The notes under the pieces are model-generated. The model was not told where the DNA came from, made no database searches, and saw only the letters and a list, made by a program, of their open reading frames with translations. Of a stretch of 64,000 bases of DNA, positions 2,035-62,623 are shown piece by piece (position 1 is the stretch's first letter; each line of letters opens with the position of its first letter). The position numbers and the translations under genes are program-made. The stretch is from Paraspadella gotoi. Its lineage: Eukaryota > Animalia > Chaetognatha. Location: NCBI GenBank assembly GCA_051294375.1, contig CM119271.1, positions 10,543,376-10,607,375 of the forward strand, written 5' to 3'.

Positions 2035-4881
2035 TTCGACCGACCGACCCCACCAACGCGGCCCCCAAACCTACCCCCTCCCAAGCCGACAAATCCCTCT
2101 TTCCTTCGACCAACGCCGCGTCCTGCCATTTTCAACAACAACGACAACGACAACAACGCCGACTCCCTCTCGATCGTCTCCTCCAGTTCCTCGCGTCTCC
2201 ACGGCCACGCCCACTTTTACGGAGACGACGACGCGATCCGATTCTCCCTCTCTTCCTCCTCTTTTTCCTCCTCCTCCTCCTCCTCCTCCACCTCCTTCCC
2301 TCCCTCATCTTCAAACCGGCGCCATCTCCGAAACGCCTCCACCGACGCCGCAGCGCCGATTATCCTCGACGCCGTCGACGCCGCTGACGCCGCGAGAGGC
2401 GCCGTTCTTTTCGTCGTCGTCGTCGCCGTTTCGTCCTCGTTGTCCCGGCGTCGTTTCGTTTCGCGCCAACGTGAGGCCGCAGTCTTTTCAAGTGAGTTTG
2501 AAGAAAGTGAGGGAGAAATAAAAAGTAAAAGGTAAGTTAAAAAGATTATAAAAATTTACTCGTTTCACAATTTCAAAGTTTTTTTTTTTACATTTTAAAA
2601 TATTGAATATCTTTGTGGTTTTTTTTTTTTTATTTTTTTTATTTCATCTTTTGTAATTATATTAATTAATTATATAAAAGTTACAAGATTCCTAGTTTTA
2701 CCGTATTTTAACAGTTCTTTAGATTTAAAAGTATAGTTCAATATTTTATGTATTAAACCTTGTTTATTAAAAAAGAATATTATAGACTACAAAAATGAGA
2801 CTATTTTGTCTGTGTTGTCTATTTTCGCCACGCGTCTTCATTACTTTAATCGCCAAGTTTTTTTTTCGTATTAAAGTTGTAGTTTAATTTTTGTTTTAAA
2901 GGTTATTTTTTTATTGTTTGTGGTTGTGATTTTTTTTTTTTAAAACTTGTCAACCGCCAATTAAGTTTGACAATTAAATTAAGTTTGAACATGGTTAGTC
3001 ATAACCAGCTTTTTTTAACTATTGAAATTTATAAAAGGGGGACTGCATATTTGTGGGTCCGTTCAAGAACTATTACGAAATTTAGAATTTTTCGAGGATA
3101 TTTAAAACTGTATTATTTGTGAAAAAAAACCAATACTTTACAATTATTTCTACATTCGACAACTTTTTCTTTCCCTCATTTATCCCTTTCTCAGGCTCGC
3201 GACAACGTTTCCAACTTCATCTGGTGGTGCAGACATCAGATCAAAATCCGCGAGGCGCTTCTCTTCGAAACTGAAGATTTGGTTTTGCAGAAAAACGAAA
3301 AAAACGTGATTCTTTGTCTCATGGAGGTGAGATTGGATTTTTTGAATTAAAAGATTGAAAGATTAAAAGATTATTAATTATTAATTATTAATTAAAAGAT
3401 TAATAGATTGGATTTTTGAATTAAAAGATCGAGCGTTTTACAATCAATTTTTATCTCGTTCTATATTTGAACAAATACACTTGTATAAACTTTTAATCTT
3501 TGAATGATTGAATTATTATATAAATTTACCATTTCAGTAAACCGCTGTATTATTTGCTAATGTTTAGTCTGGGCACTTGTAAATAACTGAAAAATAAAAA
3601 GGGTTCGTCATTTAGGGCTTATTTCATACGGCTTGGTTAATGGGTATATTTTACATTAGAGTTTACTGACATCTCTAAGGGAACAAGTTTCATGGAACAA
3701 AGAAAGTTACAAGTGCAAAAAAAAACAAACAAAAAAACAACATTAAAGTATTAAATAAAACCGCGAACCTTGAACCAACATAAATTTTAATGACCTAGTC
3801 GGGCCAGTCGCTCCAATCTCTTATCTATTAAAAAAACATAACAACCCGGGATAAGAACATTTTTTTTTCTTTGTCAAAAAGTAAATCCTTACTCCCTTCA
3901 TTCTTTGTTAGTTGCGCCACGAGAAATCCCAAAACGTAAGATGCTCATAAATTGGTCGGTCCCTTGATCTGTACCATATACCATCATACCATAATTGCTA
4001 ACTAGATCGGTCCATCCAATGTATTGGGCCGCAGCGACTTTCCTTTCACATGTATTTCTTTGTGATCACATGACTACATGAGTCCAAAATTTATGTATAA
4101 CAAACGTCTTTATATTGTATTTGTATTTATCGGAATTCCGTCTTTCATTCTTTATTATTTTAGAATTTCCTGAAGGCGGCGCGAGCAGTCACTTAGATTT
4201 GAGGTTTTTTTCTGTTTTAACAAATGAGCAACCAACTATAGGAGAGTTATGAGCATTTTTAACGACGGACAGACATACTAACCGACCGACCGATTTATAT
4301 CGATATGAAACATAAAACATTTGTCTATGATTTCATACTTGAATGTGTGCAACATTTTGAAATAGCCGTTCCATATTTTTCTCGTTGACAAACTTCGAAA
4401 AAAAGAGAGAGACAGACGCTTAAATCAACAAAAGTTTTTCCCCTTTCACGACTCTCTCTCTCTCCCTNNNNNNNNNNCTCTCTCTCTCTCGTTTTAAAAT
4501 CACGTTCCCGAAAGAAAAAAACTTTCGCTGTTCAAACTTTGAGAGAAAAATGCACACTTTGCGCGGTTGTTAAGGTGTCCGAGGCACGGCTAGGGCGTTT
4601 ACTGTGTGTTTAATAGGTTTTTTCCTTTTCTAAACTTTGTTGTTTTACTACTCTCCTTAATAATTGTCGATCGATGAATAGTTGAGGAAGGTACTCATTA
4701 ATCAATTACCCGGTGAAACTCCCGAATCTTCACTCGAGTTAATTAAGGAAGTTCAAAATTATATATATTTTTTTCAGCAGTTAAATACGATTATCAAACA
4801 TTTCTAATTCTAATATTCCATTTCCATTTTTCGAATTTTATTTACTTTCAGTTTCTCTTTAGTTTGGACTTATTCAATTAT

Positions 4882-7900: not shown

Positions 7901-8888
7901 AGGAATTTGTATAAATCATTAGTGAGTTAATGTTTTCCTTGGAAGAAATTTACGACAATCAATGTTATAAAAAGACTTTATCATTGTGGTTATAGAATTT
8001 CAAAGCGTTTTCACTATGTTAAAGATTTAAAGATCTTCAATATAATTATATTGAAGAGACAGTAATTATTGTTATGTGTTAGTGACAGAACCGTTCAATA
8101 TAAGCAGTCCCTGAGCTTGGGATCATGCAGTAACACCGTGTTACAGGCGGATTAAGTGCCCCGTCCCTCTTAACTGCTAGGCGACCATCGAGCTAGAACC
8201 CCGGACCTTTGGTTGTGGCGAACTGACTGTCTGCCGCACCAATGGCTGCTTGATGACATGGTTGGGATTTTACCATCCAATAATCATCCCCCCTGCCGTA
8301 GGAAAGTCTGTTATAGTCTCTATGCAGTGATTTGCTTGCTTGGTGGAAAGTTGTCACAAGTTGAATGCGCATGGTCGATTGCGTGGCGTGAAAGTGCATC
8401 GTGAGTTGAGGAGCATGTCGCTCTGAAAGTTTGTTGTTGCTGCTGTTGTGTTCAGATAAGTCAGCTCAAATGAAGAGACAGTAATTATTTTGTTTATGCA
8501 GAAGTCAATAAGCATCCCTGTGCTTGGTCAGCTGTACACATGTTAAGGAGTTAAGCGCCCCGTCCTGCTTAATGCAGGCGCCACGGGGATACCGGACTTG
8601 TCGATATGGGTCATCATGACTTAGCCTCCGGACCAATGGCGGTACGAGAAACGATGGTGGATTTTAGTCCACCATAATATCTAGTAAAGTTGTAAACTTT
8701 TAGTAGATTCTAAAGTCGGAAACAATCCGGATGCCGGATGCCGGATGCCGGATTCCGGATGTTAGGGTTGATTAATCATAAACCTAAGATTCCCAGTCCC
8801 CACTCCCTTTACGGAAATTCCGATTTTTCGGGCCCAATAAAAGTCCATTTCGGACAAAAGATATTCATATTTTCCCCCTAGAAAAGTC

Positions 8889-8942
<54 letters not shown>

Positions 8943-11900
8943 CGAGAGCGCTATGATAGGCCCCCATTAGCCTCGGCGCCGGATAGTCTGCCCGGCCCTC
9001 CGGCCTTTATTCTACCTTAGATGAGGTCTCTCTCTCTCTATCTCATTTTCTCCTTTCCTGACCAAAAATGGTTTTTCTTTCTTTTTAACTTTTTTACCCT
9101 TTTGTTTTGTTTTCTCGCCTTTCTTTTTTCTGAGATCTATTCTCTTTTGTTTTCTTCCGCGACCTTTCCGTTGTTCCGCGCGAGGAGGGGGCGGAGGGAG
9201 GGGGGCGTTGGGAGGAGGGCGGAGGCAGGGTGATGAAGTTGACGGGATTTTCTTTCCTAAATCTTTTTCGATTAATCTCGTTTCTTCGCCTCACAGAAAT
9301 AAAAANNNNNNNNNNNNNNNNNNNNNNNNNNNNNNNNNNNNNNNNNNNNNNNNNNNNNNNNNNNNNNNNNNNNNNNNNNNNNNNNNNNNNNNNNNNNNNN
9401 NNNNNNNNNNNNNNNNNNNNNNNNNNNNNNNNNNNNNNNNNNNNNNNNNNNNNNNNNNNNNNNNNNNNNNNNNNNNNNNNNNNNNNNNNNNNNNNNNTTC
9501 TTTTGTTTATTTGTAACTCGGAGGGGAATATATATATCTTCTATTGTCTTTAAATTCATTTATTTTTGAAAGTAGAACATGATTTAGTTTTCGATTTTTA
9601 GTAATAAAAAAGGATTTATAAATCATTATATGTTTCTGAGTGAATGTAAACTATTTATTTAGATCCTGTGAGACGTAAGAAACTGTGAGGATTGACGAGT
9701 CACCCCGAAAGTTTGGATCTTTTGTCGTCTACTGTTTCACACGAGAGAAAGGATTGAGAGTCTGATTTTGCGAAAAGTCCTTTGGATAAATAATAGTTTG
9801 ATTCGCCATTGACCACTGACCGACCGATGACCAGTGACTCAACAAAATCGGGTTTAATCCCCCCCCAAAAAAACCCCATAAATTTTCTGACTACAAAATT
9901 TACTCGTTTGCGAAAGTAACATTTGAGATCAGCGGACCAAACGACATTCTAATTTTCTATATCTTAGTTTTAATTTGTATTTAAATAAAGATACTCAATT
10001 TATCTTTCTGGTTTAACTAGTTTAAGCCTAATCCAATCCCCACGAAGCCCAACTGATCCCTCCGAACCCAATTAACCCTCTCCCCTCGCCCCCGCCCCCC
10101 TCTCTCCAAACTCCAAACATGAAAGGTTCGTAAGGAGCTTCGCCGCTGCTCCTGCCCCAACCAGTTCCTGCTCATCAAGAGAGGCAAAGGAAAATATCAA
10201 GTGGCCGACGATCAGGGGCCCATCATCTTTGTTAGGGTAAGTTAGGCCTGTGGGTCGAGAGTGTGTATTTATCTCAGTTTCTTTCTCTCTCTCTCTCTCT
10301 TTTTCTCTTTTTCTCTCTCTGTCTCTCTTTTTCTCTCTCTCTCTCTCTCTTTTTCTCTCTCTCTCTCTTTTCTCTCTCTCTCTTTTTCTCTCTCTCTTTT
10401 TCTCTCTTTCTATCTCTCTCTCTCCTTCTCCTCTCTCTCTCTCTTCTCTCTCTCTCTTCTCTGTCTCTTTTTTTTTTTTTATCTCTTTCTCTTCTCTCTC
10501 TCTCTTTTATCTTTTTCTCTCTTTTTCTCTCTCTTCTCTCTCTCTCTCTTACTTACTTAAAACTCCCCTTTCCCCCATTCTCAGGTTCTCCGCAGTCACA
10601 CTATGGTCCGCGTGGGCGGAGGTTGGGACACTTTGGAGAATTACTTGGACAAGCACGACCCTTGCAGATGCGCGGTGGAAGGGCGGTCGTCGCGCGTGGC
10701 GTCGTTAACGTCCGGTGAGCGAGAAACAAAATCACCATCACGAAAAGAGGCTAACAAAATTAGTCCAAAGAATCATTTTTAAAAAATAAAAAAATATTAT
10801 GTACATTTTTAAGAAATAAATCTATTCATGAAAAAGTAAGGCAAGATATATAAGTAAACCAAATCAAAAAAATTTGAAATTAAGTTGATTGCTACAATAT
10901 GCAAATGAGACCTTCTTTACAACAACATTGAAAAAATGTGTCAAAAACTCACCTAACGACTCATATGAAATCTCATAATTAAGCATTGGGCACAGGAGTA
11001 GGCTGCCCCTAGCTCAAAAATTAAAATTAACAACTATAACGAGAACGATTAAATTAAATTAAATTATAAAAAAACAAGAACATTTTAAATGGGATGTATA
11101 GAGTAACAATAACCTAAAAAAACATAATCATCAAAAATATAACAATTCTCCCGCCTTCCATTTTAACTTTTAAGATCCCTATCCCACGGTTGTAAAAAAC
11201 GCAAGTAACCTCCCGCCCGCGCCATATACGTCCCGCCAGATTATCCTTTTTTGTTTGCCTCGCTCGCGAATTCGCGTCGTTTCGCTCGACAGAGTAAAAA
11301 AATTCCGGGGGTGCCTGGAAGTAGAGAAGGGGAAAAGATAGGGATGTAGAAGGGAGGTAAGAGAAATTTGTGGGAGAGAGAAAAAGAGGTTAGAAAAGTG
11401 TGAAAGAATTTCGGGCGGCAAAAAAGGGATAAGAAAGACGAACGGACCGACGGATCGATNNNNNNNNNNNNNNNNNNNNNNNNNNNNNNNNNNNNNNNNN
11501 NNNNNNNNNNNNNNNNNNNNNNNNNNNNNNNNNNNNNNNNNNNNNNNNNNNNNNNNNNNNNNNNNNNNNNNNNNNNNNNNNNNNNNNNNNNNNNNNNNNN
11601 NNNNNNNNNNNNNNNNNNNNNNNNNNNNNNNNNNNNNNNNNNNNNNNNNNNNNNNNNNNNNNNNNNNNNNNNNNNNNNNNNNNNNNNNNNNNNNNNNNNN
11701 NNNNNNGAGAGAGAGAGAGAGAGCACGAGACTATAAAAGGAGAAAATGGGTTCGGTCTTTTCAGTCAAAATCCTTTTCCCCGAATTCGTCTTGATTTTTC
11801 TTCCAATTCTCCGATATCCATTTTCCCAATTCATCCATTTTCCCAAATTCATCCATTTTCCGAATTTCTCCATTTTTCCCCATTTTTTCCATTTTTTTGT

Positions 11901-14847
11901 CCATTTCCTCAACCGACTTCTCAATCGCGTCTCCAAACTTCAAAAGGTCAACGACCTCGATCCCTCTCCACGCCCCGCATCTCACTGACGCCGCAACGCC
12001 GACCCTCACTCGACGCCGTCTCAATTCCGGCGCCGTTCGATCTCGCAGAAAAGGACGCCGCTTCGTCAGAGTCCGTCGCCGGCGAGAAAGTTGACGACGC
12101 CGAGATCGAGGCAGAGATGGCGCCGATGTNNNNNNNNNNNNNNNNNNNNNNNNNNNNNNNNNNNNNNNNNNNNNNNNNNNNNNNNNNNNNNNNNNNNNNN
12201 NNNNNNNNNNNNNNNNNNNNNNNNNNNNNNNNNNNNNNNNNNNNNNNNNNNNNNNNNNNNNNNNNNNNNNNNNNNNNNNNNNNNNNNNNNNNNNNNNNNN
12301 NNNNNNNNNNNNNNNNNNNNNNNNNNNNNNNNNNNNNNNNNNNNNNNNNNNNNNNNNNNNNNNCATTTATATTTGTTGTTTAGTTAAATTATTAGAAAAA
12401 ATACATTAGAAAATATATAACCATACATAGTAACCGTTATAATTTTCTACAAATTGTTCGTGAAATGTTTGTTACTATTTTCGTTTTTCATAGAGCTCTT
12501 AGAGATCTAGCATCTTCAATATCTTATAAACAAATATTATCTTTTAAATATCAATTAAAATTTAAATTCCTTCCAGATCGAATCCGCGTCAAAACAAAAT
12601 GGCGACGGCAACTTGGTCGTCACCCGTCACCGTCTCAACGTCCTGACGCCGCCCGCGCAAAAAACCGCCGCCGGCGCCAAGCGTCTTTCCGATCCATTAG
12701 CTTCGAAGCGACTCACCGATGCCAGGAGCCAACCCGGCAACCTGCAACGCGTCGGCCGCAACTTTCACAGCATGCAGCAACTCGGCGCCAAGCCGTCGTC
12801 TAAAGGCTCCGGCACCGAGAAACGGCTCGGCGTCCCGCCGTCTAATCGGCCATCTTCCGGCGTCAAGTCGGAAACGGAGCCGAGAAAATCCCTCCGAGCG
12901 GCCGCGATGCATTCTGGAATGTCGATGCCTAAAAATCCTCTGAGAAAAACGCAAAGTTTGATGCAGATCAGTCCCGAGGCCAAGACGACGACGACGCCGT
13001 CGCAAGCCTCGGTTCCATCCGCGCGCGCCATGCGGCGTCATTCCTTGACGCCGACGCTAAGCGCGCCGGAGCAGCGGTCGACGGGGACGATGAGGAAGGC
13101 GCCGAGCATGACGACAATCCTCGAACGTCCCTCGAATCTCTCGTCGACGCCGAAGCGACCTGTAGCGAGTCGGACGCCTTTGGGTCAAAGTCGGAACGCA
13201 GGAGCGAAGCAGACGATGGCGGCGAATGCAGCAGCAACAGCGTCAGCGACAGGACGATCTCCCGCCGGATCGAATCGTCACGTGGCATCAAAGGAGACGA
13301 GAGCAACGACATCTCGCGTCTTCAAGTCTGTTCCGCCACGAACATCCGTCACAGCGCCAAAACTCTCTCCGTCGGCGAAACCCCTCGATCTCTCGACGCT
13401 ACAGCGCAGTGCGCCTCGTCCTGCGGCGCGGCGATCGGCTCCGGGAGGTGGCGCCGTGGAATCGAAGGCGAAAGTCGCCGGCGCATCTCGGTCTGCCTCG
13501 ATGGCGAATCTAGCGACGCCCTCTTCTTCCTCCTCCTCCTCCAACGTCGCCCGTCGTTCCACCAAAGTCGGCGTCTCCGCCTCCACGCCGGCCAAACCGA
13601 CGCCGTCTCGCGTCAACCGGCGACCCGCCAACTCCTCGTCGACGGCCAAGACGGAGCGCAACGCCAAGACCGTCTCCTGCCTCCTCGAGCGCGTCAAGGA
13701 GATCCCCGACCCGAACGATCTCAAAGAGCACGCCGAGCTGCAGCTCTTCGAGAAGATGGAGATGTTCTTCCTGGAGGACGAAGGGATCGTCCGCGAGGGG
13801 GCGCCGTCGACCGATTCGAGGTCTTCCCCGGCGTCGTCGTCTTCGTCTTCGAAAAGGGCGCCGGTCGCCAACTCGGTCGATTCGGGGTTGGAGATTCTGG
13901 ACGACGCGCCCGGAGAGAGAAGGAGGATTTCGTCCGTCCATTCGCAGGAGACCAATTCCATTTCCGGTGAGAATTTTTGGCGGGAAGATTTGGGGATTTA
14001 GATTTAGATATTTCTCTCTCTCTCTTTTATTCTCTTTTTCTATGATTTGGGATTGACATTTAAATATATCTTTCTCGCTCTCTTTCTCTGTATCTCTCAT
14101 TCTTTTTATCCCTCTTTCTGTTTCTTTCTCTCTCTCTCTCTCTCTCTGACTCTCTCTCTCTCTAACTCAAATAAACAATCCAATGACAATATAAACCTTT
14201 ATAATATTAATTTTAGGAAAAACAGTTTTAATGTGGCAACGAATTTTATTGACAAGTAAGTCGGACATGTTTCGACTCTTATAGAGTTAGAGTCTTCATC
14301 AGCAAATATTAATTTTAAAATATATTGTCAAGAAAAAAATATATTCCTTCAATCAAAAAGTATATAAACGAACTTTTATCCATTCCCCACAGGCTCTTCC
14401 GCTTCCTCCTCCTCCTCCTCCACTTCCCCACCACGCGATCACCCTTCCTCCCCCAAACCCCTCCGCCCTCGACGGGCCAATCTCCCCGCCGAGCTCTCCT
14501 CTCCTCCTTCCAGAATCCCAAAGCCGCTGGGTTCCCCCAGCGCCGCAGTCGCCGGCGCCGGCGCCGTCCGGTCCTCCAGTCTCGACGAGGCCGACGCCAA
14601 GCGGAACGTCGAAGTCTGGGTGTCCAGCGTGCCCAAGTCCGATCCGGCGACGCCGTTTCAGACGCGCAGGAAGATCGTCGGCGACGCGGCGTCGACAGCG
14701 GCGGCTGCGGCGGCGTTGCCAGGCGACTTTTCCGAAATCTATCTCCGCTGCGTGTCTTCCGTCCGGTCGCGCCGATTGAGACGCGTCAATTCGGCGCCGG
14801 ACGTCAACGAAGATTTCGCGCAAAACACTTCCCGATTGTACATTTGA
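2035..14847 (+). CDS. GAS2L: GAS2-like protein (calponin-homology + GAR domain, long S/P/R-rich tail with SxIP); 5' exons missing from window
   Basis: Phase-compatible GT-AG exons ~2035-2491 (…[10 protein letters not shown]), 3195-3326 ([46 protein letters not shown] domain C-half), 5010-5225 ([25 protein letters not shown]), 10126-10236 ([19 protein letters not shown]…IIFVR), 10585-10714 ([32 protein letters not shown] signature), 11947-~12129 (runs into gap), 12577-13966, 14393-14847 (PPSRIPKP, stop TGA). Confidence 0.92.
4173..4295 (+). mobile_element. Dispersed repeat, DINE/Helentron-like (second copy ~26748-26908)
   Basis: AGGCGGCGC.AG.AGTCACTTAGATTTGA…TTTTAACAAATGAGCAAC.AACTATAGG.GAGTTAT followed by GACGGACAGAC/CCGACCGAC microsatellite in both copies. 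Family assignment is inference from the GAC-microsatellite architecture. Confidence 0.6.
5993..6070 (+). mobile_element. Dispersed ~130-bp intronic repeat family A (copies 5993-6070 +, 16247-16367 +, 18087-18195 +, 24440-24562 -, 48150-48280 +)
   Basis: Shared ATGAAATTGGTACAACCAATATAA.AATTATCCATTCATTTAATAAATAAGCTATCTTGCCCCTGACTTTGGACAGGCTTT…CCTCCATCACT…ACAAGATAATGAC in five places, both strands. Confidence 0.85.
8103..8178 (-). ncRNA. Twister ribozyme-like motif, P5-type permutation (LTR-borne)
   Basis: Minus strand AGCAGU UAAGAGG GA CGG GGCACU U^AA UCC GC CUGUAAC ACGGU GUUACUG CAUGA UCCC AAGC UCAGG G ACUGCU: closing P5 stem AGCAGU/ACUGCU, conserved GA, U^AA site, GC...AAGC pseudoknot, UCCCAAGC loop as in characterised twisters; some mismatches in this copy. 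Confidence 0.7.
8180..8249 (-). other. tRNA-like cassette inside LTR (degenerate, Pol III A/B-box-like)
   Basis: Minus GCAGCCATTGGTGCGG…AAAGGTCCGGGGTTCTAGCTCGATGGTCGCC; homologous to 23404-23475. Confidence 0.55.
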
Positions 14848-16815: not shown

Positions 16816-18952
16816 GTGATTTCATCGTCATTCCCATCCCTCCTGTCCTTCCGCCTCTCCTCGGCCAAAGGGCGGAACTTCTCTCTCTTCCTCCGTCTCT
16901 TCCTCATCTTCTTGGTCCTCGTGATCGTCGACGCTCAAAACCGGAACTCCCTCTCCAAGAGACGCAACGAGGAGGACGGTCGAGGCGAGAGCGGACGGCC
17001 CTTTAGCCGGAAGGCGCTGGGCGAGAGAGGGCGCGGGCAATCGCGCGGGAGGGGCAGGGNNNNNNNNNNNNNNNNNNNNNNNNNNNNNNNNNNNNNNNNN
17101 NNNNNNNNNNNNNNNNNNNNNNNNNNNNNNNNNNNNNNNNNNNNNNNNNNNNNNNNNNNNNNNNNNNNNNNNNNNNNNNNNNNNNNNNNNNNNNNNNNNN
17201 NNNNNNNNNNNNNNNNNNNNNNNNNNNNNNNNNNNNNNNNNNNNNNNNNNNNNAGGCGGACGGACAATGGGATAAATTTTAATTTCGCCGTCCGCGATTT
17301 TGGCGGCTTTTAAAAAACCATTTAAAAATACATATTTTTTTAAAAAATTTTAGAGATGAAACGAAAAAATCGTTGGAATAGCAATTTTTATTTTTATTAT
17401 TATTATCTACCTCTCAAAAAAATTTTTAAAAAATATTACTTAATTACCAAAACCCTAAACCCTGTTAACCCTAACCACCCCTAACTATTAACCACCCTTA
17501 ACCCTAACCCCTCCCTAACCCCGGTCGGCGTAAGTAAAAGTAAAAATATTATTATAAGTTTATTGAATAGTCTATTAAATAATGATTAAAAGTTTTTCCA
17601 TCTATACGTCTTGAGAAAAAAAAAAGGTTTTTCAAACATCTTTTTATCTATTGGCAACGAACCACAAATTCTACTCCATTGATTCACAAACCTATAACTC
17701 ACCCAATAACTAACCCTTTCCTCTTTCAGGCGGCAAATGACCGACTTTCTGATGGCGAGCATGAAGAACATCAACAGCAATCAGGCCAACGCCAAGACGG
17801 ATGGCTTCTACCTGCCGACCAGCATCACCAAGGCTTATCACTTCAACGCCGTCCAGGTCGTCCTAAAAAACTACACTCCCAAGGAGATCCTCGGACAGCT
17901 CTGCAATCTCGTCTTCAAGGAAGACGTCAACGCTTTGCTCGTCGTCAACAACAAGCCGCTCTCAGGGACGTCCGTGCCCACGCCGCAGTATTTGTCCAGG
18001 CTGGGTGAGGAGCGAGAGGGGGGCGGGGTGAGGGTTAGGGATTTTTTTTTTGTTACAACGATTTATATTTACGTATTTATTTATATATGAAATTGGTACA
18101 ACCAATATAAAAATTATCCATTCGTTTAATAAATAAGCTATCTTGCCCCTGACTTTTGACAGGCTTTGGTGGCCTCCATCACTTTTACAAGATAAACGTA
18201 AGAGTCGAAAAATATCCGAATTATGAAGGTTCGAATACAATGTCTAACTTATTAACCAAAAATGTAAAAATCCAATTTTAGCTGTTCTAAATTTTGTTTG
18301 CCTTTAATTAAAAAAAAAAAACATTACCGCCTTACATAGATCGCCTTCTACAACGTTAGTGACATCTTCAATTCTTTACATAAAGGTCCAATGCAAAACC
18401 AAATTATTATTCAACTTTTTTAAAAGCTCCGGTAAAAATTTGATAAAAAAAAAATTGTAGAAAAACAGATACAAAAAAATCTTGGAAAAACAATACTACA
18501 AAATGCAAATGAGATTGAAGGAAACAATTCTCCGAGAAACGAATCTACGACACAACCTGTCACTGGACAGTTGTCAGGATCGATGAGCTCGATCTTTCCG
18601 GCAGTTTAAAGATAATACTTTAAAAATAAAATAGTTATTAATGTAGTACATCTATTTTTTAATTTTTCAGCCAACCATTGGGTCTTTCCCATTCTCTCCT
18701 GGAATTCGGGAATCCCGGTTTGGGTCAGAAGAACTCGGATTCCCTGATGCTGCAATGGCGCCCTCCTTCGAGCATCAATGCCGCGCCATGCTTATAATAT
18801 TAGGTATTGTTAAAATAATCGCATGCTGATTAAACATTAGTAAACTTATTATTTTTTTTTTAACATTGTCTTAGATATTCCTATGACTGGTGCAAGTTTC
18901 GGTAATAACCTCTACTCTCCGGGCGGCCACGATAATTTTATCCAGGTGAGAG

Positions 18953-19642: not shown

Positions 19643-22600
19643 ATAAAAGAATGTTGTGTTCCCAGGCCGTTCGCACACGGTCGCGAAGGTTCGCCGAATA
19701 CAGAATTGCGGCGAAGGATTTGACTTTTGTCGGCGAAAAGTATCGACGCGAACTTCGGATGCCAACATGGCGGAGATCAAGGTATCCTGTGTTAAACTCT
19801 TGCTTGGTTGTCTGCTTATTTGCTTGCTTTCTATCATTTCTTTACTGGTTTGCTTCTTTGGACTGGCTTATNNNNNNNNNNNNNNNNNNNNNNNNNTTTT
19901 CTCTCTTTTTTTCTTTTTCTTTTTTATTTTCTTGTTTGTATTCTACTTTCTTTCTTTTCTTTTTCTTTCTCTTCATATTTTCTTGGTAGATTTTAAGAAT
20001 AAAATTTTTGTGATTAGAAATTTAAGTCTTAATAAAGTTTAAAAAAATTTATAATATCATTAGGAAAGAGAAAACAGCAATGCCAATAGTAAAATCTATC
20101 CTTATAAATTTCCTTTGAAACCTGAATACGAATTGACAGAACCTAACTTAAGTTATTACGAAATTCAATTGTTTAATTTCCAGTCGGGTCTCAAGGAAGT
20201 CGACAAAGACACTCGCATCATTTTATTCTACGCGAGTCGAGAAGAAGCAGATCTCATCTTCAGAGCCGCAAATGAGCTCAATATGACCGGACGCGAACAT
20301 CTGTAAGACCCAAAAACTAGGCGGACATCCGTACTTCATCCTAAATGAATTAAAATAAACTAAATTTCTACGCAACTATGTATTAGCCTAATAAGTAGCT
20401 TGATACATAATTGTTTAACAGCTCAATTGTTTATATTATTTTTTCCATCTTTGTCGCCAGATGGATCGTGACTCAATCTATCATCAGCGAAGATGTGATA
20501 AGAGAAGAATACAAACCTCAATACATAATTCCCAAATCATTTCCCATCGGTAGGTTTACAATTTACTATGGTGGACTAAAAATCAACCAAACTGAAGAGA
20601 CAGTAATTATTGTTATGTGTTAGTGACAGAACCAGAGATGTGGAAGCGATCGATTTTTCCGCCGCTACCAATCCGGCGCTTCCAAGACCCTCCCGCTCCC
20701 GTTTTCGGGTGCAATCCTTACTTTTTTAGCCCGGATCGCTTTCGGTTTCGAGTGCACATCGCTTCCTTCCTTTAAAATTTTACATTTGTTACTATTTATA
20801 AAAATACTCTCTTTAGACATGTAATTCATTGGTAAAATAATTTTAAACAATCTTTTTGTTAACAAAATAACATGTTAAATTTTTTACTATGAAAAATTGT
20901 AAAATTTGTAAGATTGTAAGAATCGTTTGAGTGGAAATGAATTTAAATGAAAAAAAACAAAAAACCTTTTTCCCTATTTGCTTTTTTTCTTTTTATTAAA
21001 TATAAATACAAGCTGCATTAATTATTCAATTAATCAATTAATTAATCAATCAATCAACTAAACAAACTAAATCAAAATCATTTAAAAAATTAATGAATCA
21101 ATTTTTTTATCAATCAATCAATAATCAATTAATTTATCAATCAAACTAATTAATAAATTTATTTATCAATAAATTATTAAAAGAACCAATTAATTAATTA
21201 ATCAATTAATTAATCAATCAATTAAACAATGTCAGTGTTATCATTGTCATCTCCAACGTCGTTGTTGCTTTTGTCCTGGTCAATGACCTGACAAAAAGAC
21301 CTAAAAATTAACAAGGCCTGATATGAATTTATTTTATTTGATTCAATCAAATCATTCAATAATCATAATGGTGCTATCCTTGTTGTCATCATAATCATCA
21401 TCATGGTAGTCATTTCGTTTTGTTATAATGAAAAAACAAAAAACCAAACAAGTTTGAGCTAACAATGCCAGAACTGATCAGTTAATTAATTATTCAATCA
21501 ATTAATCAAATATTCAATCAATCAATCAAAAAATTAAGCAATCAATCAATTTGTCATCGTCGGTATTATCATTGTCGTGGTTGCCATCATTAATTATTTA
21601 ATTAATTAAACTCCTTTATCTTTGTTGTACATTTGAAAAAATGTATCCTATTATTTATTTATCCCTGTTGTTTTGTTTCTCTCTCTCTCTCTCACTCTCT
21701 CTCTCTCGTCTCTCTTAACAAGTTTCACTTCTTTTCAACAACTCACTCATTCTGCCCTTACCTTCAACTGTCCTCAGATCTGACCACTATTCTGTCTCAC
21801 CACTTTGTTGGAAAAACTTTTACCCTCTCTCTCTCTCTCATCTCTCTCTCTCTCTCACACTCTTCTTTTAACACAAATTTATTATTGAATATCATATGCT
21901 GATGAAGGCTTGAAGTAAACAAGCCGAAACATGTCCAACTATTAATTAAAAAATCGTTGTTACAAATTCAAAATTCTTTGCTTTCTTTAAATTAATAAAA
22001 ATTTTATAGAAAATTTGAGGCATGTTTTTTGTGATAAAGAAAACCTGGTATTATCAAAAACAGTAAAAAAGTAAAAATGATAAAAATAATAACAACAAGA
22101 ACTAGTAATTACATTGGCTGAGAAAAGGTCAGCCATAACAGGATTGGGTAAAAATAGGTTATTCTTATTGACCACTACTGTACTACGGCTCACAAAGTAC
22201 AAAAACTTCGTCGTCGTTTTCGTCCATTGTATTCATCGTCGTTGTTGTCTTTGTTCAAATCATTTGAGCTCCCAAATGTTTGATGTTATTATTTTAATTA
22301 ATTAATATGTAATTAATTAAAATAATTTATTTTTTTTAATTAATCAATTAATTACCGCTAATGATCGTGGGCAGATCCGGATTTGTTTGCTCAAACTTGT
22401 TTATTAATAATTTTAATTTATTTATTTTAATATATTTTTTTATTTGCTTTTTTGTTCAGTGCAAGAGGGGAAAAAAGAAATCTTTTTTTCAGCTCAGATT
22501 TTATTTGAATATATTAAAAAAAATAATTAAAAAAAATAAATATGTAATTTTTTTTTTATAGATTCTCGACCAAAGAGAAAAAGAGAATAAAAGAAAAAAA

Positions 22601-25600
22601 AGATAAAAGAAGAGAATAAGAAAAAGTGAAAAAAAATTAAGAGCAAACAATTTTAAATGTTGAAAATAAAATATTAAAACAAATTTTTAAAAGAAAAAAT
22701 CAAGAAAGAGCAGGGGGTTGCAATATTTTAATACATTAAATACCTTTCATTTCTAACCAATAACAAATGACCAGGAAGCGAACACGCAGGGTATTATTAT
22801 AGCTTCCGGGTTCAATCCTTTATTCTCAATTTTTCTATCGCTCCCGGTTTCGGGTTCTTCAAAAATCGGCCGCTTCCACAGTGTTCGCTTACGCTTTCCG
22901 GATCGCTGTCCACATCTCTGGACAGAACCATTCAATATAAGATTAAGCAGTCCCTGAGCTTCGGATCAGGCTGTAACACCGTGTTACAGCCGGGTTAAGC
23001 GCCCCGTCCCTCTTAACTGCAAAGGCTGGTGGATTTTAGTCCATCATACATCTCCCCCTCCTGTAGGGAGAAGTCTTGCGTCTCTTCAGTGAATTGTTGT
23101 TGTTGTTGGAAAGTTCGTCACCAAGTTGAGGCATGTCGCTGATGTGTGATTGGCGGAGAGTGCATCGCCAGGTTGAGGAATGTCGCCTGAAAGTGTTGTT
23201 GTTGTTATGTTTGGAAGTCGGGCTCACCAATGAAGAGGCAGTAATTATTGTTATGTATTAGTGACAGAACCGTTCATATAAAGCAATCCTGAGCTTCGGA
23301 TCAGGCTGTAACACCGTGTTACAGCCGGGTTAAGCGCCCCCCCCTTTAACTGCTAGGCGACCAACGGTTGGTGGATTTTAGTCCACCATACAACCATTCA
23401 TCAGCGGCCATTGTTGGGGAGGCAAGTCATTCGCCTCCCAACCCAAAGGTCCGGGGTTCTAGCCCGGTGGTCGCCCCAGCAGTTAAGAGGGACGGGGGCT
23501 TAACCCGCCTGTAACACGGTGTTACAGCCCGTCTCTTCATTATTAAATATTAATAATTAATTAATTAATTTTTTTTCAGGGTTGTTGGAATACATTACGA
23601 AAAATCTCGAGAAGCGCTATTCAAGGAATTGAGAGCGGGAACTTACGTCTGGGCCAAAGGAGTCGCCAATTTCGTTAAAAAACACGAAAAACTCAACCTT
23701 TTCCGCACAAAAAGTTTTCCTGCGAGGGTGAGTTAAAAGATTTTTCTTTTCTTTGGGGGGGGGAACTCTGAAATCGAATTTGATGCGAAATTGCGACTTT
23801 GTGACGCAGAAAGCGGGGATAAAAGCGCTTCGGTCAAGTGGAAATACGGAGAAGAAATGTACAAGAGTATTCGTAAGAATTTTATGATTGAAAAAAAATT
23901 TTCAAAAAAAAAAAAAAAAATTGGAAAACGTTTTAATGTTTTTCTACAACGACTTTATTTGTAAAAAACGTACATGTTTGGGCTTACATACAAGCCTTCT
24001 TCAGCGTTAACAAATTTTTACAAAACAAAAAAACAAAAAAAAAAAAAAATTTGTTAACGCTGAAGAAGGCTTGTATGTAGCGAAACCGTACGTTTTTTTA
24101 CAAATAAAGTCGTTGTAGAAAACATTAAAAACGTCAACCACAACGAAAAGAAGGAAATTCACGATGAAAAAAAAAATTAAAACGCTGAAATGAAAGAACA
24201 AATCTCTTTAATAATTCAGAAATGTCAGCGTGACATTCGAGGGCTGACAAAGGATTTGAAAATGGCCGATAATAAAACTGTGGACTTTAACGAGGACGGG
24301 ACGGTGCGTTCCGTGGATTTAGTCATCATCAACTTGAATCGGGAGAGAACTTGGGATAAGATTGGCGAGTTCAGAGGTGATCGATGATAATGCCTAGTAT
24401 GTATTGACCTTATTTTATTTCAAAATATGAACATGAGCTTGACCTGCTGTGTCATTATCTTGTAAGAGTGAGGGAGACCTTAATCCACCATAGCTTGTCC
24501 AAAGTCACAGGCAAGATAGCTATTTATTAAATGAATGGATAATTTAATATTGGTTGTACCATATACATACGTGTAATTGATTCTCTAACGTCAAAGCGCT
24601 ATTCAAATATATTCTTAATATTTATTTTCTCTTAATTACGGTATTTTAAACTTTATACACCCCTGCAAGGAACTTACTTGGAGATAAAGGATATCGTTTG
24701 GCCCGGGGGATCGAGAACTCATCCGATCGGAAGACCGGAGCGATATCAATTGACCATCGTGACTCTCAGAGAAGAACCTTACGTTTTTCTCAAAAAAATG
24801 GATCCGAAATTGGACAAGTGAGATTAGAAATGTGCCGGGCAACACTGTATAGTAGGGTGGAGTGATGAAAAGATTAAGCGAGTTAATAATATTTTTTATG
24901 TAATTAATATGTAATTAAAGAAAATCATGCCTTTTATAAAAAAATTTTAGCATAACAGTAGAGCAAATTGTATTTTCTTTGTAACAATATCCTTATAAAA
25001 TTTTTAAATTTCAAATTGATTTTTTAAAAATTTTAATAACAGATTGAAAAAAATAATAAACTTTTATAAAATATGTTATATGATATTTTAATGTTAAAGC
25101 TACGAAAAATGATAAAAATGGTTTATAATATAATAGATTCTATTACAAAAAGTTCAAAAGTTGAGATTTTTTTTTCTAATTTTGTTACTGAAGACAAATA
25201 AATTTATATTTTTTGTCCAACTTTTTATAAGAAATTTGATCTTTAAAAAAATTTTAAAAAATTATTTTGAAATTTTTTTATTTTATAAGGATATTACTAT
25301 AAGTATATTGTATTTTGCTTTTCTGTTCACAAAATAATATTAACAAAATACTTTTTATATTTAATAATCATGATGAAGACTCTAAACAAAAAGAGTCGAA
25401 ACATAGTTTAATTGAGGCTAATCGGTTTAAATTTTTTTTAGATGTTCATCGGTTAACGACAAGCCTTGCTTCGTTCCGAGATTGGGTCTTCCATCTGACG
25501 TGACCAACTTGACTGACTTATCACTCGCTCTTCAGAATGGAACCGAAATTCAGGGACTTAACTACACAGGTGAAATTGACAATTTGAAAAGTCATGCACA

Positions 25601-43855: not shown

Positions 43856-45770
43856 ATCAATTCAAGAGACTAGACGCTTAATCATTGATTTATGTTTCAA
43901 TTTTGTTTAACTAGTAACTAGATCTATTATTATGCTCTCTGTCCCTTACAATAATAATTGTCGATTACCGAGAATAAAAACGGTAATAATTTGCCCTCTC
44001 TCAATTCCGCTCAAATATCCGGTTTTTCCTGTACTTGATGTCGTGATTAATCTTTTGAAAAGTACATATGGATGAGGCAGAATTTGAAGCGAATTGAATA
44101 ATTGGATTGTAAATTAAAATGTAAACCTGTCGCTGTAATGTTCTGGACTAATCTTAGCTAAAGAATCAAAAGTGTTTTATTCAATATTTACCAATTCATT
44201 GCTTATTTCAAGATGTTTCTCTATACTTTAGTCATTTAATGTGTTAATTAATTTAATTAATTTAATTTATTTTACCATTATTGTTATCACTTCTGAAAAG
44301 AATTTGCTAAATACTGCAGCTACGTATGTACTTTTATAATTGTTAACGTTATTTAGGTTGCTGTGTTAGATGCACAGTAGCGATATCTGGAGTATATATC
44401 CTTTTAACTAAGAATTTGATGACTACGGAATAATAAATATTCGTATTTCTTATTCAACATCCACAAGTTATGAAATTACACTATTCTGGTGAAAAATTTC
44501 CAATTTTAAATACTTATTTATAATCTTATATCAAGATCTTCTTGAATTCTCGATTTTTATGCTGGCATAAATTTTGAAAAATGAGTTGTTAAGGAATACC
44601 GCGCTAATACGTACCGAAATCGAGTTTTATTGTTGATCAGAATCGAATCAAAGGTGGAAAACATTTTTAAATTCATAACCATGTGCTTGAAGTAAAAGCT
44701 ATCCAATGACATAAAGCTTTTTCTGGTCATTATCGTTGAAAAATAAGTTAGAATTAAAGGCAATATTGCTAGCTGCTTGTCGTTTTCTGCTGCAATCATA
44801 CTAGAAATTAGACACCTGCAGTTTGTAAGAGAAATTGGTATTGGTGTTGACTTTCGCATAACATTGACCTAATAAAAATGGTTTTTATTCACTATTCAGC
44901 CAAATAAGATACATACTAGGGATACAATGACAAATGACATCCGAAGTAATAAAATATATTTTAAAATTAAATTTCTTTGTTGCAAAATCAATGAAAAAAA
45001 AACACACTGGAACAAGCAACAGACGAGACGTGAAAGTTTTAATTTCTCGATATAATGGATAATCTTTTTGCAACGTTAAGGAAACAATCTGTATCAATGA
45101 ACATATGTTGTTTAATGTTTATTAAACAGTAATTTGTTTATCCGTAACCAGGGATCGATTAGTACGAGAGACTTTTATTCTTTTTTCTGAGGAGGAAGTG
45201 AGGAGAGACTCCTATTGATGAAGAGGAAAAGGACCGGCCTAGTCAATAGAAAGAGGAAGAGGAAGATATCCTCTTCCGTCATGCCGCCGCCGAGGAAAAA
45301 AGAAAATGGACGTCGCCTTCCTGAGCTGATGATAAAATTTGACAATTTCGTTCATTAGAAAAATTGAGAAACAATTATTGTTTATGCGGATAATATGAGT
45401 ATATATGTGCGTGGTGGTTTCTCCTGATCGTCTAAATACATCACGGAAAATGAATTTGACGGAATCGTGGCGCTTTCTAAGATCAGTTTGTCTTTACCGA
45501 TTGAAAAGTAAGGTACAAGATGCTTATTTTTGGTTTCATTTTAGAGAAAGGGTGTAGCGGGTTGGGGGTAGTTATTTATGAAGAATCGTTAAAGCACAAT
45601 TAGCTGTTACTTATTGCGTTTCAATTCTTTTAAGCATTGTTTACAAATTAAACATTTTCAGACCTATATGTAGAACTTTTGATGAGAATTACGATTTGAT
45701 TTGTGATTTCAGATTACCAAAGATTTGCCTTATTGAAGCTCGTACTTTTGATGTCCTGTAATTAAGAACA

Positions 45771-48435
45771 ATGCATATAAAGCACTTGAAAACCATCGTC
45801 CCTCCCCAAGAGGGCGCGGCAAAGATACAAGCTTTGGCTTGGGCACCCAACAGTCAAAAATTAGCCGTCTGTAACGCGGATCGAATCATCTCTCTTTATG
45901 ATGAATACGGCGAACGCAAGGATAAGTTCGCCACGAAGCCCATCGAGGCCAGATTCGGCCGCCGGAGCTATGTAGTGACCGGGCTGGCCTGGTCTCCCGA
46001 CTCTACCAAGCTCGCCGTGGCCCAATCCGACAACATCATCTACGTCTACAAGATCGGCGAAACCTGGGGAGACAAAAAGGTCATCTGCAACAAGTTCGTC
46101 CAGCAAAGCGCCGTCACTTGCATCTGTTGGCCGCCCGATCAACACATCGTCTTCGGTCTCGCCGACGGCAAAGTCCGCATCGCCAATACGAAGAATAACA
46201 AGTCCAACACCGTCTACGGCACGGACTCTTTCACCGTCGCCGTCACCCACAACGTCTCCGGCAAGGGTATCCTCTCCGGACACATGGACGGCACCGTCGT
46301 CCGTTACTTCTTCGACGACGAAGGCAGCGGCGACGCTCAGGGCAAATTGCTCAACCACTCCGTCCCGCCCTACGCGCTCGCCTGGGCGCTCAACTCGATC
46401 GTCATCGGCGGATGCGACCGCAAAGTCGTCGCCTACGGGAGAGACGGAAAAGTCATCCAACAATTCGACTACAGTCGGGATCAGGACGAGAGGGAGTTCA
46501 CTTGCGCAGTTCCCTCGCCCAGCGGACAATCGGTGGTCATGGGATCCTACGACCGTCTGAGGATTTACAATTGGAGTCCTCGCAAGGGTCAGTGGGAAGA
46601 GTCGCGCAGCAAGGATATCCCTTACCTCTATACCATCAGCTGCTTGAGTTGGCGCAAGGACGGATCCAAGCTCGTTTGCGGCACGCTTTGCGGCGGAGTG
46701 GAGACCTTTGACTGCTGCCTCAAGAGAACCATCTACCGCAACAAGTTCGAGATGACCTACGTGGGATTGAGTCAGGTCATCGTGAAGAATCTCTCCACCG
46801 GGTCGCGCGTCGTCCTCAAGTCTCACTACGGTTACGAGATCGACGACGTCAAGATTCTCGGCAAAGATCGATACTTGGTCGCCCACACGACGGACACCCT
46901 CCTCCTCGGCGATCTCCAGACCAACAAGCTCTCCGAGGTTGCCTGGCAACGCAGCGCCGCCGATGCCGCCAAGGAGAAGTTCTACTTCGACAACGACAAC
47001 GTTTGTCTTATCTTTAACGACGGGGAGTTGTCGCTCGTGGAGTACGGCGCCAACGAGATCCTCGGCAGCGTCCGGACGGAGTTCGTCAACCCGCACTTGA
47101 TCTCCGTCCGCATCAACGAGCGGAAAGTCAAAGAGTCGGACGAGAACAAGAAGATGGCGTATCTAGTGGATCTCAAGACAGTCGCCATCTTGGATCTCGT
47201 GTGGGGAATCAACGTCGCCCACGTGACCCACAACCACAAGATCGATTGGTTGGAGCTCAACGAGACGGGGAGGAAGCTGCTGATCAGGGACAAGCAGCTC
47301 AAGCTGTATCTCTACGACATCGCCACGCAGCAGTTGACCACGATGCTGCAGTATTGCTCCTACGTGCAGTGGGTGTTCGGGTCGGACGTAGTGGTGGCGC
47401 AGAATCGCGGGAATCTATGCGTTTGGTACAACATCGACGCCCCGGAACGCGTCACCATGTTCCCCATCAAGGGCGACATCGTGGAGATCGAGCGGGAGAA
47501 AAACCGGACGGAGGTGATCGTGACGGAGAACGTCTCCACCATCTCGTATCGCTTGGATGAAGGCCTCATCGAGTTCGGCACCGCCATCGACGACGGCAAC
47601 TGGAGTCGCGCCGTCAAGTTCCTCGAGGGGCTGGAGATGACGCCGGAGACGGAGGCGATGTGGAAGACGCTCGCCAAGCTGCTCCTCGAGAACAACGAGC
47701 TCGGATTCGCGGAGAGATGCTTCGCCGCTTTGGGCGACGCCGCCAAGTGTCGCTACTTGAGGGAGTTGAATCGGATCGTGGACGAGGAGGATCGATTGGC
47801 GGGGACCAAGACGGGGATCAATCATTATCGAGTCCGCGCTCGGTTGGCCGTGCTGGAGAAGAATTTCAAAGACGCCGAGGATATTTATCTGGAGCAGAAT
47901 TCCGTCGATGAATGCATTCAAATGTACCAAGAGTTGCACATGTGGGACGACGCCATCGCAGTGGCCGAGGCTAAATCCCATCCGAGGTTGGTTTTGGACT
48001 TTTTTTTCAACTGTCGTAAATGGGGAAAAAGCATTGCTTACGTTTAATCAATATCGTTTTGATAAAATAATAATAATAATATTCGTCCAAGTAAATCTGA
48101 TGATTTTTTTCAGATTCTTTCATTATTTTTCTTCATACTATACTATACTATGAAATTGGTACAACCAATATAATAATTATCCATTCATTTAATAAATAAG
48201 CTATCTTGCCCCTGACTTTGGACAGGCTTTGGTGGTTTAAGGCCTCCATCACTCTTACAAGATAATGACATAGCAGGTCCCTGCAAGCTTTCAATCAAGA
48301 CTCTCTCACAGTCCCGTTAATTCACTCCCAGAGTATAGTACTATAGTATACTATAGTATACAAAATAGAAAAATATCGTTTATTTGAAAAATTCTTTAAA
48401 AAAGGAAAAAAATGAATTCCTTTTTAGAAGACTGA

Positions 48436-48481
<46 letters not shown>

Positions 48482-51400: not shown

Positions 51401-51642
51401 ACGAAGCTTCCCTCGTCGCTCCGGACACGGGCATTCGATCCCTGCCCTGCGTCATTTCCGGATATCCCGTCCTGAGAAACAAGCTGGACTTTCGTCGTCC
51501 CGGCCGCGCCGCCAACAAGGAAGATTGGAACAAGTTTGTGATGGCGATGAAGTCGTCTCACAGTTCGGAATGTCAGGACGTCTGCAAATTTATCGGGCAG
51601 TGGTGCGGAACGTCTCCCAATCCCACTTATAATTTTCAGTGA
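45771..51642 (+). CDS. IFT172: Intraflagellar transport protein 172 (WD40 + TPR-like), 1763 aa, single intron 47987-48566
   Basis: MHIKHLKT…[12 protein letters not shown]…DKFATKP…[11 protein letters not shown]; exons 45771-47986 and 48567-51642 join in frame (5292 nt); C-terminal CVISGYPV…[18 protein letters not shown]. Confidence 0.98.
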
Positions 51643-60125: not shown

Positions 60126-61228
60126 ATGTCGTCTACGGAACTCGAATCGGCAGGTAATTCAATACTTTGGGGGATTGTAAAGTTCGATGAACTTCCTTGT
60201 ACTTTGTTGTTAATATAAGTTTTTTGGTTTAATTAAATAAAAATAAGTCAAATAAAAAAATTATTATTCAATTTCCCAGCGGGCTCGTCGGAATCCGACG
60301 GCTTCGTTCAAGTGAAAAGTCGAAAAAGGAAAAGCAAAGAATCGGGGATGGACCTCGAGGGATCGGAACGTGAGTAGAGAGAGAGAGCGAGAGAGAGAGA
60401 GAGAGCGCTTATCTCAAAGCTTTTATACACAATCTCTTTTTCATAACCACTTTTCAGAAGCTGCCAAGAAGAAACCTCTTTTCCCTCCTATCTCCGCTGA
60501 GGCCCTCGTGGACTCCGTGGAAGGTTTCAGAAAGGTTCCAGGTAAGACAATCCAAATGGCTAAGAAAATGGCCATGAGTTTTATAATCTCATTACATTTA
60601 CGAATTAATAATATAAAAAAAAATTTTACAGTTCCCAACAATCGATACACGCCGTTAAAGCAAAACTGGGAAAAGCTTTACACTCCGATCGTGGAGCATT
60701 TGAAGCTGCAGATTCGTTTCAACCTGAAAACGCGTAACGTCGAGTTGAGGACTTGCGAAGAGACGGATAATATTGGTAATTGGTAAAGGGTGTTCGCGTC
60801 AAAACTTAGAAATAAAAGACGATGATCACATTTTCACTTTCCTCTCCCAAGGTTCCCTCCAAAAAGCGGCGGACTTTGTCCGCGCCTTCCTCCTCGGCTT
60901 CGAAGTCTCCGACGCCCTCTCCCTCGTTCGCCTGGAGGATCTCTTCCTCGAATCATTCCGCGTGACGGACGTGAAGCCTCTCAAGGGCGACCACCTCTCT
61001 CGCGCCATCGGCCGCATCGCCGGCGCCCACGGCAAGACCAAGTTCACCATCGAGAACGTCTGCAAAGTGCGGATCGTCCTCGCCGACGAGCAAGTCCACA
61101 TCCTCGGCTCTTATCAGAACATTCGATCCGCGCGTCACTCCATCAGCAGCCTTATCCTCGGCAGCCCGCCCAGCAAAGTCTACGGATCGATGAGGGCCTA
61201 CGCCTCCAGAGCCGCTGCGCGGTTTTGA
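60126..61228 (+). CDS. PNO1: RNA-binding protein PNO1/Dim2 (KH domain)
   Basis: Exons 60126-60153, 60280-60369, 60458-60541, 60632-60775, 60852-61228; [64 protein letters not shown]. Confidence 0.96.
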
Positions 61229-62083: not shown

Positions 62084-62623
62084 GGAAAAACAAAAAAACA
62101 AAAAAAAAAAAACTAAGAATATAATTTGGTAACATTAAATCAAATCAAATTGTGTAGCCTTTTTTTTTCAATTGATAATACGCGGAGGTTAATTCAGGGC
62201 ATCAGAGAAATGTTAATTTACTCTTTATTTCTTACGGCTTACGTAATTTTTTATTTGTTCTGGTGATATTTTTCTTTCTTTTGGCCCTTTTCATTTTCCG
62301 TGACCCCTTTACTCAATAATTGCTTTTTACATTTGTGTTTCTTTCGATTTCATTTTAAATTTGTTATATGTTCAACGATTGTTTGTTTTTTGTTAACGAG
62401 TACAGTATTTTCTACAAAGTTGCTCACGCCTTTTCTTCTTTAGCAATCCTGCTAATCAATTCGAGATTAATCAAAGGGTAAGTCATTTCAATGTTGCCTT
62501 ATTTTTTCGTTTTTAGAAAACAAGTCGTTTATGTCGGAAGGGTCGAAAAATAATTTTCTGGTTATTTACTAACCTCAAAAAAAAAAAATTAACTTCAAGT
62601 AAATAACCAAATAGAAAATAAAA

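Follow-up and report, generated by a model that had tools for sequence, protein, structure and literature searches.

Twister is among the most widespread of the self-cleaving ribozymes. Its type-P5 class, reportedly described by Roth et al. in 2014 (Rfam RF02684), is among the closest known systems to the element reported here: a 74-nucleotide (nt) module, carried by a short repeat in the genome of the chaetognath Paraspadella gotoi, that to judge from its letters almost certainly descends from a twister. The module was flagged by an initial annotation on the minus strand at 22947-23020 of a 64,000-nt stretch, the whole of which we call the window (NCBI GenBank assembly GCA_051294375.1, contig CM119271.1, positions 10,543,376 to 10,607,375 of the forward strand), and this flagged copy is referred to below as copy B.

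We took the twister consensus from PMC5408937 and from Table 1 of PMC8501958. Like type-P5 twisters (PMC5408937), the module shows the same order of parts, ends in P5, has a U-A cut step followed by A and includes the optional helix P3. It also shares the U-NNN-AAGC loop L4 closed by P4, together with the predicted long-range pairings T1, between L4 and GA-NGG, and, in the family-majority sequence, T2, between the GC of L2 and the GC of L4. Unlike them, it is a repeat module without a P1 hairpin, with a P2 of three layers, a CCG/CGG T1, an A-U pair extending P4 and no Rfam match, and its setting is an animal repeat rather than a bacterial or phage operon.

The sole experimentally supported role of a eukaryotic twister so far is the 5' processing of one schistosome retrotransposon (PMC8501958). 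That ribozyme also occupies an animal genome at high copy number and is tied to a retroelement, but it is of type P1, forms P1 partly from the target-site duplication and stands at the 5' end of the autonomous Perere-3, whereas the present module is permuted, P1-less and placed in the middle of a short non-coding repeat. The Sm-alpha and Sj-alpha retroposons of schistosomes (PMC6765202), which resemble short interspersed elements (SINEs), are likewise short, abundant and non-autonomous, with a polymerase-III-type head followed by a small self-cleaving motif; theirs is a hammerhead, whereas the motif here is twister-like by sequence, and the repeat is not seen in tandem. A further parallel comes from the dimeric hammerheads found in newt and axolotl satellites and in Penelope-like elements (PMC7229834; PMC6765202), which have a closing helix III of about one pair and a palindromic loop and reside in abundant animal repeats, although they belong to another ribozyme class and dimer action is for this module a conjecture. 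The engineered 'mini-twister' (Kosutic et al. 2015, via PMC5408937) has a P1-less core like that of the module and cleaves almost at the wild-type rate; it is built of two strands, whereas here six nucleotides join the P1 positions in a natural, permuted single strand. A search for missing twister permutations is described in PMC10085705 as having given no promising candidates.

Read from 23020 to 22947 on the minus strand, copy B is GCAGU-UAAGAGG-GA-CGG-GGCGCU-U/AA-CCCG-G-(CUGUAACACGGUGUUACAG)-CCUGA-UCCG-AAGC-UCAGG-G-ACUGC, letter for letter as first annotated, and the order of its parts and nearly all of the conserved letters support the type-P5 circularly permuted architecture that had been proposed for it. 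The parts are as follows.

23016-23020, minus strand: P5 5' strand GCAGU, pairing with ACUGC at 22947-22951 and forming P5 in the minimum-free-energy fold
23009-23015, minus strand: L2 3' side UAA, then P2 3' strand GAGG (sequence reading)
23004-23008, minus strand: G-A (place of the catalytic guanine), then T1 3' strand CGG (sequence reading)
22998-23003, minus strand: 6-nt self-complementary linker GGCGCU in place of the P1 hairpin; the family-majority string
22995-22997, minus strand: U/A-A, with the cut predicted between U22997 and A22996 from its place in the twister layout
22990-22994, minus strand: P2 5' strand CCC, then L2 GG (family majority GC)
22971-22989, minus strand: P3 hairpin CUGUAACACGGUGUUACAG (folded)
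22953-22970, minus strand: P4 CCUGA/UCAGG around L4 UCCGAAGC, with CCG as 5' strand of T1 and the GC of T2 inside the loop
22947-22951, minus strand: P5 3' strand ACUGC (sequence reading and fold)
23021-23092, minus strand: 5' part of the repeat, the hairpin GGACUAAAAUCC and leader, by comparison with copies A, C and E; 5' limit approximate
20593-20632, minus strand: detached 3' tail of the repeat, ending ...CUGUCUCUUCA; 41/41 identical to the tail of copy A

Two departures from known twisters that the initial annotation had pointed out stand as described: P1 is reduced to a 6-nt linker, GGCGCU being all that lies between CGG and U/A, and P2 is short, with CCC facing (G)AGG in two C-G pairs plus C/A. 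The UAA-GAGG of copy B resembles the GUAAA-GGAG of Schistosoma twisters (Table 1, PMC8501958) but is one layer shorter, and its GA-CGG corresponds to the L1 GA-GGG of known twisters (PMC8501958; PMC5408937).

We wrote a twister descriptor at two levels of stringency. Its loose level requires an L4 closed by a 4-bp P4, UAA-N3-4-GC upstream of it and, 3-45 nt ahead of the UAA, a GA together with the L4 triplet in exact complement; for the strict level, two P2 pairs, a 4-bp P5 and the second UAA are required in addition. The 8-bp P3 is used at neither level. The descriptor has one match in the window, which is copy B, and the family-majority sequence derived below passes both levels. In 1802 dinucleotide shuffles of the window the loose level matched 32 times (about 0.018 per shuffle) and the strict level not once, as was also the case in 300 shuffles of an earlier run. 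Because the perfect 8-bp P3, which sits exactly between L2 and P4, was left unused, the odds of a chance match are lower still. The 19-mer of P3 occurs at four places in the window, compared with none in 100 shuffles.

Self-comparison and reading of the window revealed five copies (A to E) of a repeat of roughly 300 nt around the module. Copies A and D lie where the initial annotation had placed them, with modules at 8104-8177 (minus strand) and 23479-23529 (plus strand), and the cut it predicted for copy A, between U8154 and A8153 on the minus strand, follows from the layout. To these can be added copies C (module 23283-23353, minus strand, also with CCGGC) and E (8512-8575, minus strand, diverged), as well as an internal deletion in copy D that removed P4, L4 and the 3' strand of P5.

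8052-8340, minus strand: copy A, full repeat, module at 8104-8177; 5' limit approximate
8471-8680, minus strand: copy E, diverged, module at 8512-8575; 76-81% identical over the aligned parts; 5' limit about 8680
23231-23400, minus strand: copy C, module at 23283-23353
23401-23539, plus strand: copy D, tRNA-like head at 23404-23475, 5' half of the module at 23479-23529

The cut-site UAA is found in all five copies and in the family majority. L4 is UCCGAAGC within CCUGA/UCAGG in B, C and the majority and UCCCAAGC in copy A, the third C of which is G in the majority, and copies A, B, D and E all have the G-A before T1 (GACGG), which C has lost. Compared with the majority, copy A has UCCC in L4, the linker GGCACU, a P4 strand CAUGA with a mismatch, and UAA-UCC. 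Copy C has a run of G in place of the GA-CGG strand, L2 GG, and AUUGC as the 3' strand of P5. Copy D has lost most of its tail as well, and at 23529 the family consensus runs on into L4; copy E retains GACGG-GGCGCU-UAA, with decay in L2, P3 and L4.

Copies C (minus) and D (plus) stand head to head, meeting at 23400/23401, both truncated at the 5' end and each with its own 3' end; the pair makes up a 230-nt inverted structure at 23231-23539. A match to the Rfam family MIR8622 at 23302-23531 (48 bits, compared with a gathering score of 197) only reflects these inverted copies and was discarded. At about 39800-39850 on the minus strand there is also a fragment, UUAAGAGGGACGA-AGGCAU-UAACCCACC, in which both catalytic strands appear nearly letter for letter and at the right spacing, while the linker, L2 and everything downstream differ and there is no L4; this is probably what is left of an older relative of the module.

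To see the repeat beyond the window, we aligned contigs from public sequencing runs of the same organism (X1, X2, X8 and X9, the last only guessed to be RNA) to copies A and D, requiring at least 80% likeness on copy A. Copy A was matched by 7,694 contigs in X1, 5,527 in X2, 209 in X8 and 590 in X9, and copy D by 4,471, 3,696, 699 and 254, respectively; because thousands of contigs match, we take the repeat to be extremely abundant. On the 3' side the repeat ends sharply at 8052, and beyond that point the flanking sequences are A/T-rich and mutually unlike (agreement 0.40-0.46), so the copies are dispersed and not in tandem. Majority letters, taken as the depth-weighted share of contigs, differ from copy A at five places.

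8157: majority linker GGCGCU, 95-98% (X1, X2)
8151: majority UAA-CCC, about 94.5% (X1, X2)
8129: majority P3 ...ACAG, over 98% (X1, X2)
8126: majority P4 CCUGA, over 98% (X1, X2); 98.6% in X1
8119: majority L4 UCCG, 83-96% across all four runs

In X1 and X2, about 16% of the share at 8119 belongs to UCCA, as expected of a CpG decay product, and about 1% to the UCCC of copy A. U replaces the C of GACGG in no more than 5.5%, and no variants of 5% or more are listed at the GC of L2 or the GC of L4, apart from one X8 contig. Consensus strings at the loose ends of the copy D alignment spell the same linker, L4, P4 and P5 letters. The family-majority 74-mer thus assembled retains T1 CCG/CGG, T2 GC/GC, P3, P4 and P5 and differs from copy B at 1/74 positions, the second letter of L2, which is C in the family and G in copy B; its minimum-free-energy fold (-27.4 kcal/mol) contains P5, P3 and P4. 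Past 8212 the family consensus carries on in letters unlike those of copy A, whose head beyond that point (8213-8340) is met by one contig each in X1 and X2, reaching about 8250. From these alignments, the module and tail seem to be common to subfamilies with diverged heads.

The majority also alters how T1 and T2 of copy B are to be viewed. As initially annotated, CCG/CGG preserves the pairing of the usual CCC/GGG, in copy B and in the family majority alike. It had been taken as a change special to copy B, which is mistaken: it is the majority state of the repeat family (L4 CCG 83-96%). Aligning the copies had been proposed as a check on co-variation of the two T1 strands, with their independent variation named in advance as the refuting outcome, and within the window independent variation is what we find. 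Full pairing occurs in B only of the three readable copies, copy A having CCC/CGG and copy C CCG/GGG.

The copies do differ at the L2 position as had been noted, with CCGCCUGUAAC in A and D and CCGGCUGUAAC in copy B, and here the comparison turns out to the disadvantage of the flagged copy, which is the less canonical one because its private change of L2 from GC to GG hits the conserved T2 pair. T2 can pair in the family majority and in copy A but not in B and C, both with L2 GG; copy B could form it only via the first nucleotide of P3 (reading CCCG-GC), and it is in this reading alone that it matches the descriptor. Its predicted fold (-28.6 kcal/mol) is altered as well: the new G lets the GG of L2 pair with the CC of P4, so that P3 is extended and P4 is abolished. 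The tRNA-like part of the repeat has been deleted from copy B, as comparison with copies A, C and E reveals, and its tail is split off. Copy B is therefore predicted to be impaired for cleavage, and given the broken T2, the misfold and the split tail it is most likely an inactive insertion.

The sequence that splits copy B, at 20633-22920, is 2,288 bp long and has terminal inverted repeats of about 20 bp beginning CAGAGATGTGG, subterminal direct repeats and an A/T-rich interior without an open reading frame of 110 amino acids or more. Its two flanks, 20625-20632 and 22921-22928, are an 8-bp target duplication that reads GACAGAAC on the plus strand. Such 8-bp duplications are typical of hAT DNA transposons, and the insertion has the look of a non-autonomous member of that group.

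If any copies are active, they would be source copies with the majority sequence. We hold tentatively, at a little short of even chances, that these cut their own RNA at the U-A step, acting in cis and without P1; cleavage of the majority RNA at this step by whatever mode, in cis or as a dimer, appears on the whole somewhat probable. In the cis mechanism we propose, P5, P3 and P4 would form, the CCG of L4 would pair with the CGG of GA-CGG (T1) and the GC of L4 with the GC of L2 (T2), and in this fold the guanine beside P2 and the adenine just 3' of the cut would take up the positions that they have in solved twisters. P1 would be dispensable as it is in the laboratory 'mini-twister', so that the RNA could act in cis; a twister without P1 cleaves a single nucleoside at almost the wild-type rate in vitro (PMC5408937). 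In every copy the module and the tRNA-like head run in the same direction. The role of the module, guessed by analogy with the hammerheads of Schistosoma SINE-like and Penelope-like elements, might be the trimming or processing of the repeat transcript.

A number of observations weigh against a working ribozyme. Twister P2 has four Watson-Crick pairs and is sensitive to any addition or deletion (PMC5408937), and here it has three layers, one letter fewer on each strand. The G-C pair that extends P4 under L4 is called 'essentially invariant' in twisters (PMC5408937), and here it is A-U, with pairing retained. In place of a P1 hairpin there are six letters that could form in cis at most one G-U pair closing a GCGC loop, and cleavage without P1 has been called 'inefficient' (PMC8501958). 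The Rfam models twister-P1, -P3 and -P5 gave no match at gathering score over the window, and with E relaxed to 10, slices of 1101, 701 and twice 96 nt gave no twister match either. With pseudoknots uncounted, the nested part of the twister fold reaches -18 kcal/mol, weaker than the minimum-free-energy fold at -27.4, and a competing register with GGG/CCC pairing, which would bury the candidate catalytic G, is also favored over it (-20.4 versus -18.0 kcal/mol nested). The full set of majority features is present in 0/5 copies in the window, and among the best-supported loose ends listed (a further 392 and 249 lie outside the list) copies do not accumulate with their start at the predicted cut.

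The same features lead to the strongest alternative, that the module is a dead relic, derived from a twister and no longer cleaving in the source copies, which is either kept in the repeat body or merely undecayed there; it might, for example, be a structure used in reverse transcription, or be kept for no reason. A P2 one layer short, an A-U pair in place of a near-invariant G-C, the missing P1, the silence of Rfam and a register that would bury the candidate catalytic guanine are all what such a relic might display, and the module is not clearly less variable than its surroundings: positions with a variant of at least 5% number about 4/74 in the module, 6/52 in the tail and 3/35 in the head-proximal part. 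Full-length copies, moreover, keep the head, so new copies must have been made from uncut RNA, and a fast ribozyme between head and tail would oppose the spread of the repeat. Against a relic, the family majority holds all of the T1 partners, in a double change relative to CCC/GGG, as well as both T2 pairs and the three helices, and copy E and the fragment at about 39,800-39,850 have retained exactly the strands UUAAG.(A/C).GGACG and UUAAC. On balance we regard a dead relic as a serious prospect, if not the one we would expect.

Less favored is a twister that depends on dimerization, in which GGCGCU would pair with that of a second copy to make a 6-bp intermolecular P1 and thereby two domain-swapped cores, to each of which one RNA would give its 5' half and the other its 3' half, in a nested structure. 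The linker is indeed fully self-complementary (with G-U ends), its self-duplex of six pairs being worth -8.3 kcal/mol, and the domain-swapped dimer reaches -47.7 kcal/mol compared with -36.0 (2 x -18.0) when both molecules take the monomer twister fold. There is a precedent in the hammerheads of newt and axolotl satellites (PMC7229834) and of Penelope-like elements (PMC6765202) that act as dimers. About 5% of random hexamers, (6/16)^3, are self-complementary when G-U is allowed, however, so the palindrome alone says little; the linker of the fragment at about 39,830 is not self-complementary; and P1 is dispensable in vitro (PMC5408937). Because the family is dispersed and no joints that go back within the repeat are listed, a partner copy would rarely be on the same transcript. 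The homodimer's minimum-free-energy fold is dominated by an intermolecular P3 duplex and says nothing for or against this model. We consider dimer-dependent cleavage unlikely and prefer cleavage in cis without P1, itself held only tentatively.

That the repeat resembles the twister consensus by chance is very improbable: Rfam finds no match and the loose-descriptor rate is non-negligible across many windows, but the strict descriptor never matched a shuffled window, the 8-bp P3 fills the place between L2 and P4 exactly, and its base, CUGUA.../...UUACAG, is similar to the CUGUAGC.../...GUUACUG of Schistosoma twisters (PMC8501958).

Searches elsewhere for the module gave little. A metagenome scan with a 17-mer of P3 returned 53 loci, with flanks common to none, and a scan of viral contigs returned 0 loci. 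With the two catalytic strands, a scan of prokaryote genomes returned one locus, upstream of a bacterial gene, which we took as a chance match.

The repeat that carries the module is short, dispersed, non-coding and present in very high copy number, with flanks unrelated among copies, and it may be described as SINE-like. This is said with some reserve, as upstream of its weakly tRNA-like head there is a conserved leader of at least 50 nt with the GGACUAAAAUCC hairpin, which is unusual for a SINE. A 7-bp acceptor-like stem is found in the head together with a T-arm-like hairpin. The Rfam tRNA model gives it 18.9 bits (E = 0.63) at 23404-23475, below the gathering score of 29, and ARAGORN called no tRNA. 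The repeat has no open reading frame and ends ...CUGUCUCUUCA, without a poly(A) tail.

As for an autonomous partner, Pfam scans of 77 open reading frames of the window found no reverse transcriptase and no GIY-YIG domain. According to PMC8557442, canonical hammerheads are missing from Naiads, a type of Penelope-like element, which favor (TA)n as targets and occur as inverted pairs truncated at the 5' end. The A/T-rich flanks of the repeat and the head-to-head, 5'-truncated pair of copies C and D fit this description, although the likenesses are indirect, and a text search of passages of the consensus supplement of PMC8557442, with lines broken at 70 letters, found no convincing twister layout and no shared tail. 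It is conceivable, if rather doubtful, that the P1-less type-P5 twister is the working ribozyme of an entire set of invertebrate retroelements said to have no hammerheads, namely Naiad-type Penelope-like elements and tRNA-headed repeats that borrow their 3' end, and that the palindrome in place of P1 lets it cut only as a dimer.

Should the module prove to be a working twister, eukaryotic twisters would be under-counted, this form being invisible to Rfam, the dispensability of P1 seen in the laboratory would have a natural counterpart, and short repeats would carry a twister as schistosome SINE-like elements carry hammerheads. The family would also be a natural test of T1, with CCG/CGG as the norm and CCC, CCA and UGG variants among its copies. 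In the literature searched, no paper combines 'twister ribozyme' with 'Naiad', and a full-text search with a 21-nt stretch of the module gave no match. Among the matches listed for 'twister ribozyme' with 'SINE', judged by titles and the starts of abstracts, none describes a twister inside a SINE and only PMC8501958 links a twister to a retroelement; supplements other than that of PMC8557442 may bear on this.

The remainder of the window contains features unrelated to the repeat. Seven runs of N (10 to 247 letters) lie at 1494-1518, 4468-4477, 9306-9497, 11460-11706, 12130-12363, 17060-17253 and 19872-19896 and stand for assembly gaps or for withheld letters. A complete gene for U2 spliceosomal RNA is found at 43285-43477 on the plus strand (Rfam 180.9 bits, E = 2.4e-38). 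The IFT172 gene follows at 45762-51642, also on the plus strand, in two very long open frames (761 and 1032 amino acids) that are 63-71% identical to bilaterian homologues; opposite its second part, the other strand has an open frame of 1046 amino acids. Further on are a PNO1-type KH frame at 60749-61225 and a RED-type frame at 62615-64000, and the genes in this part seem to be intron-poor.

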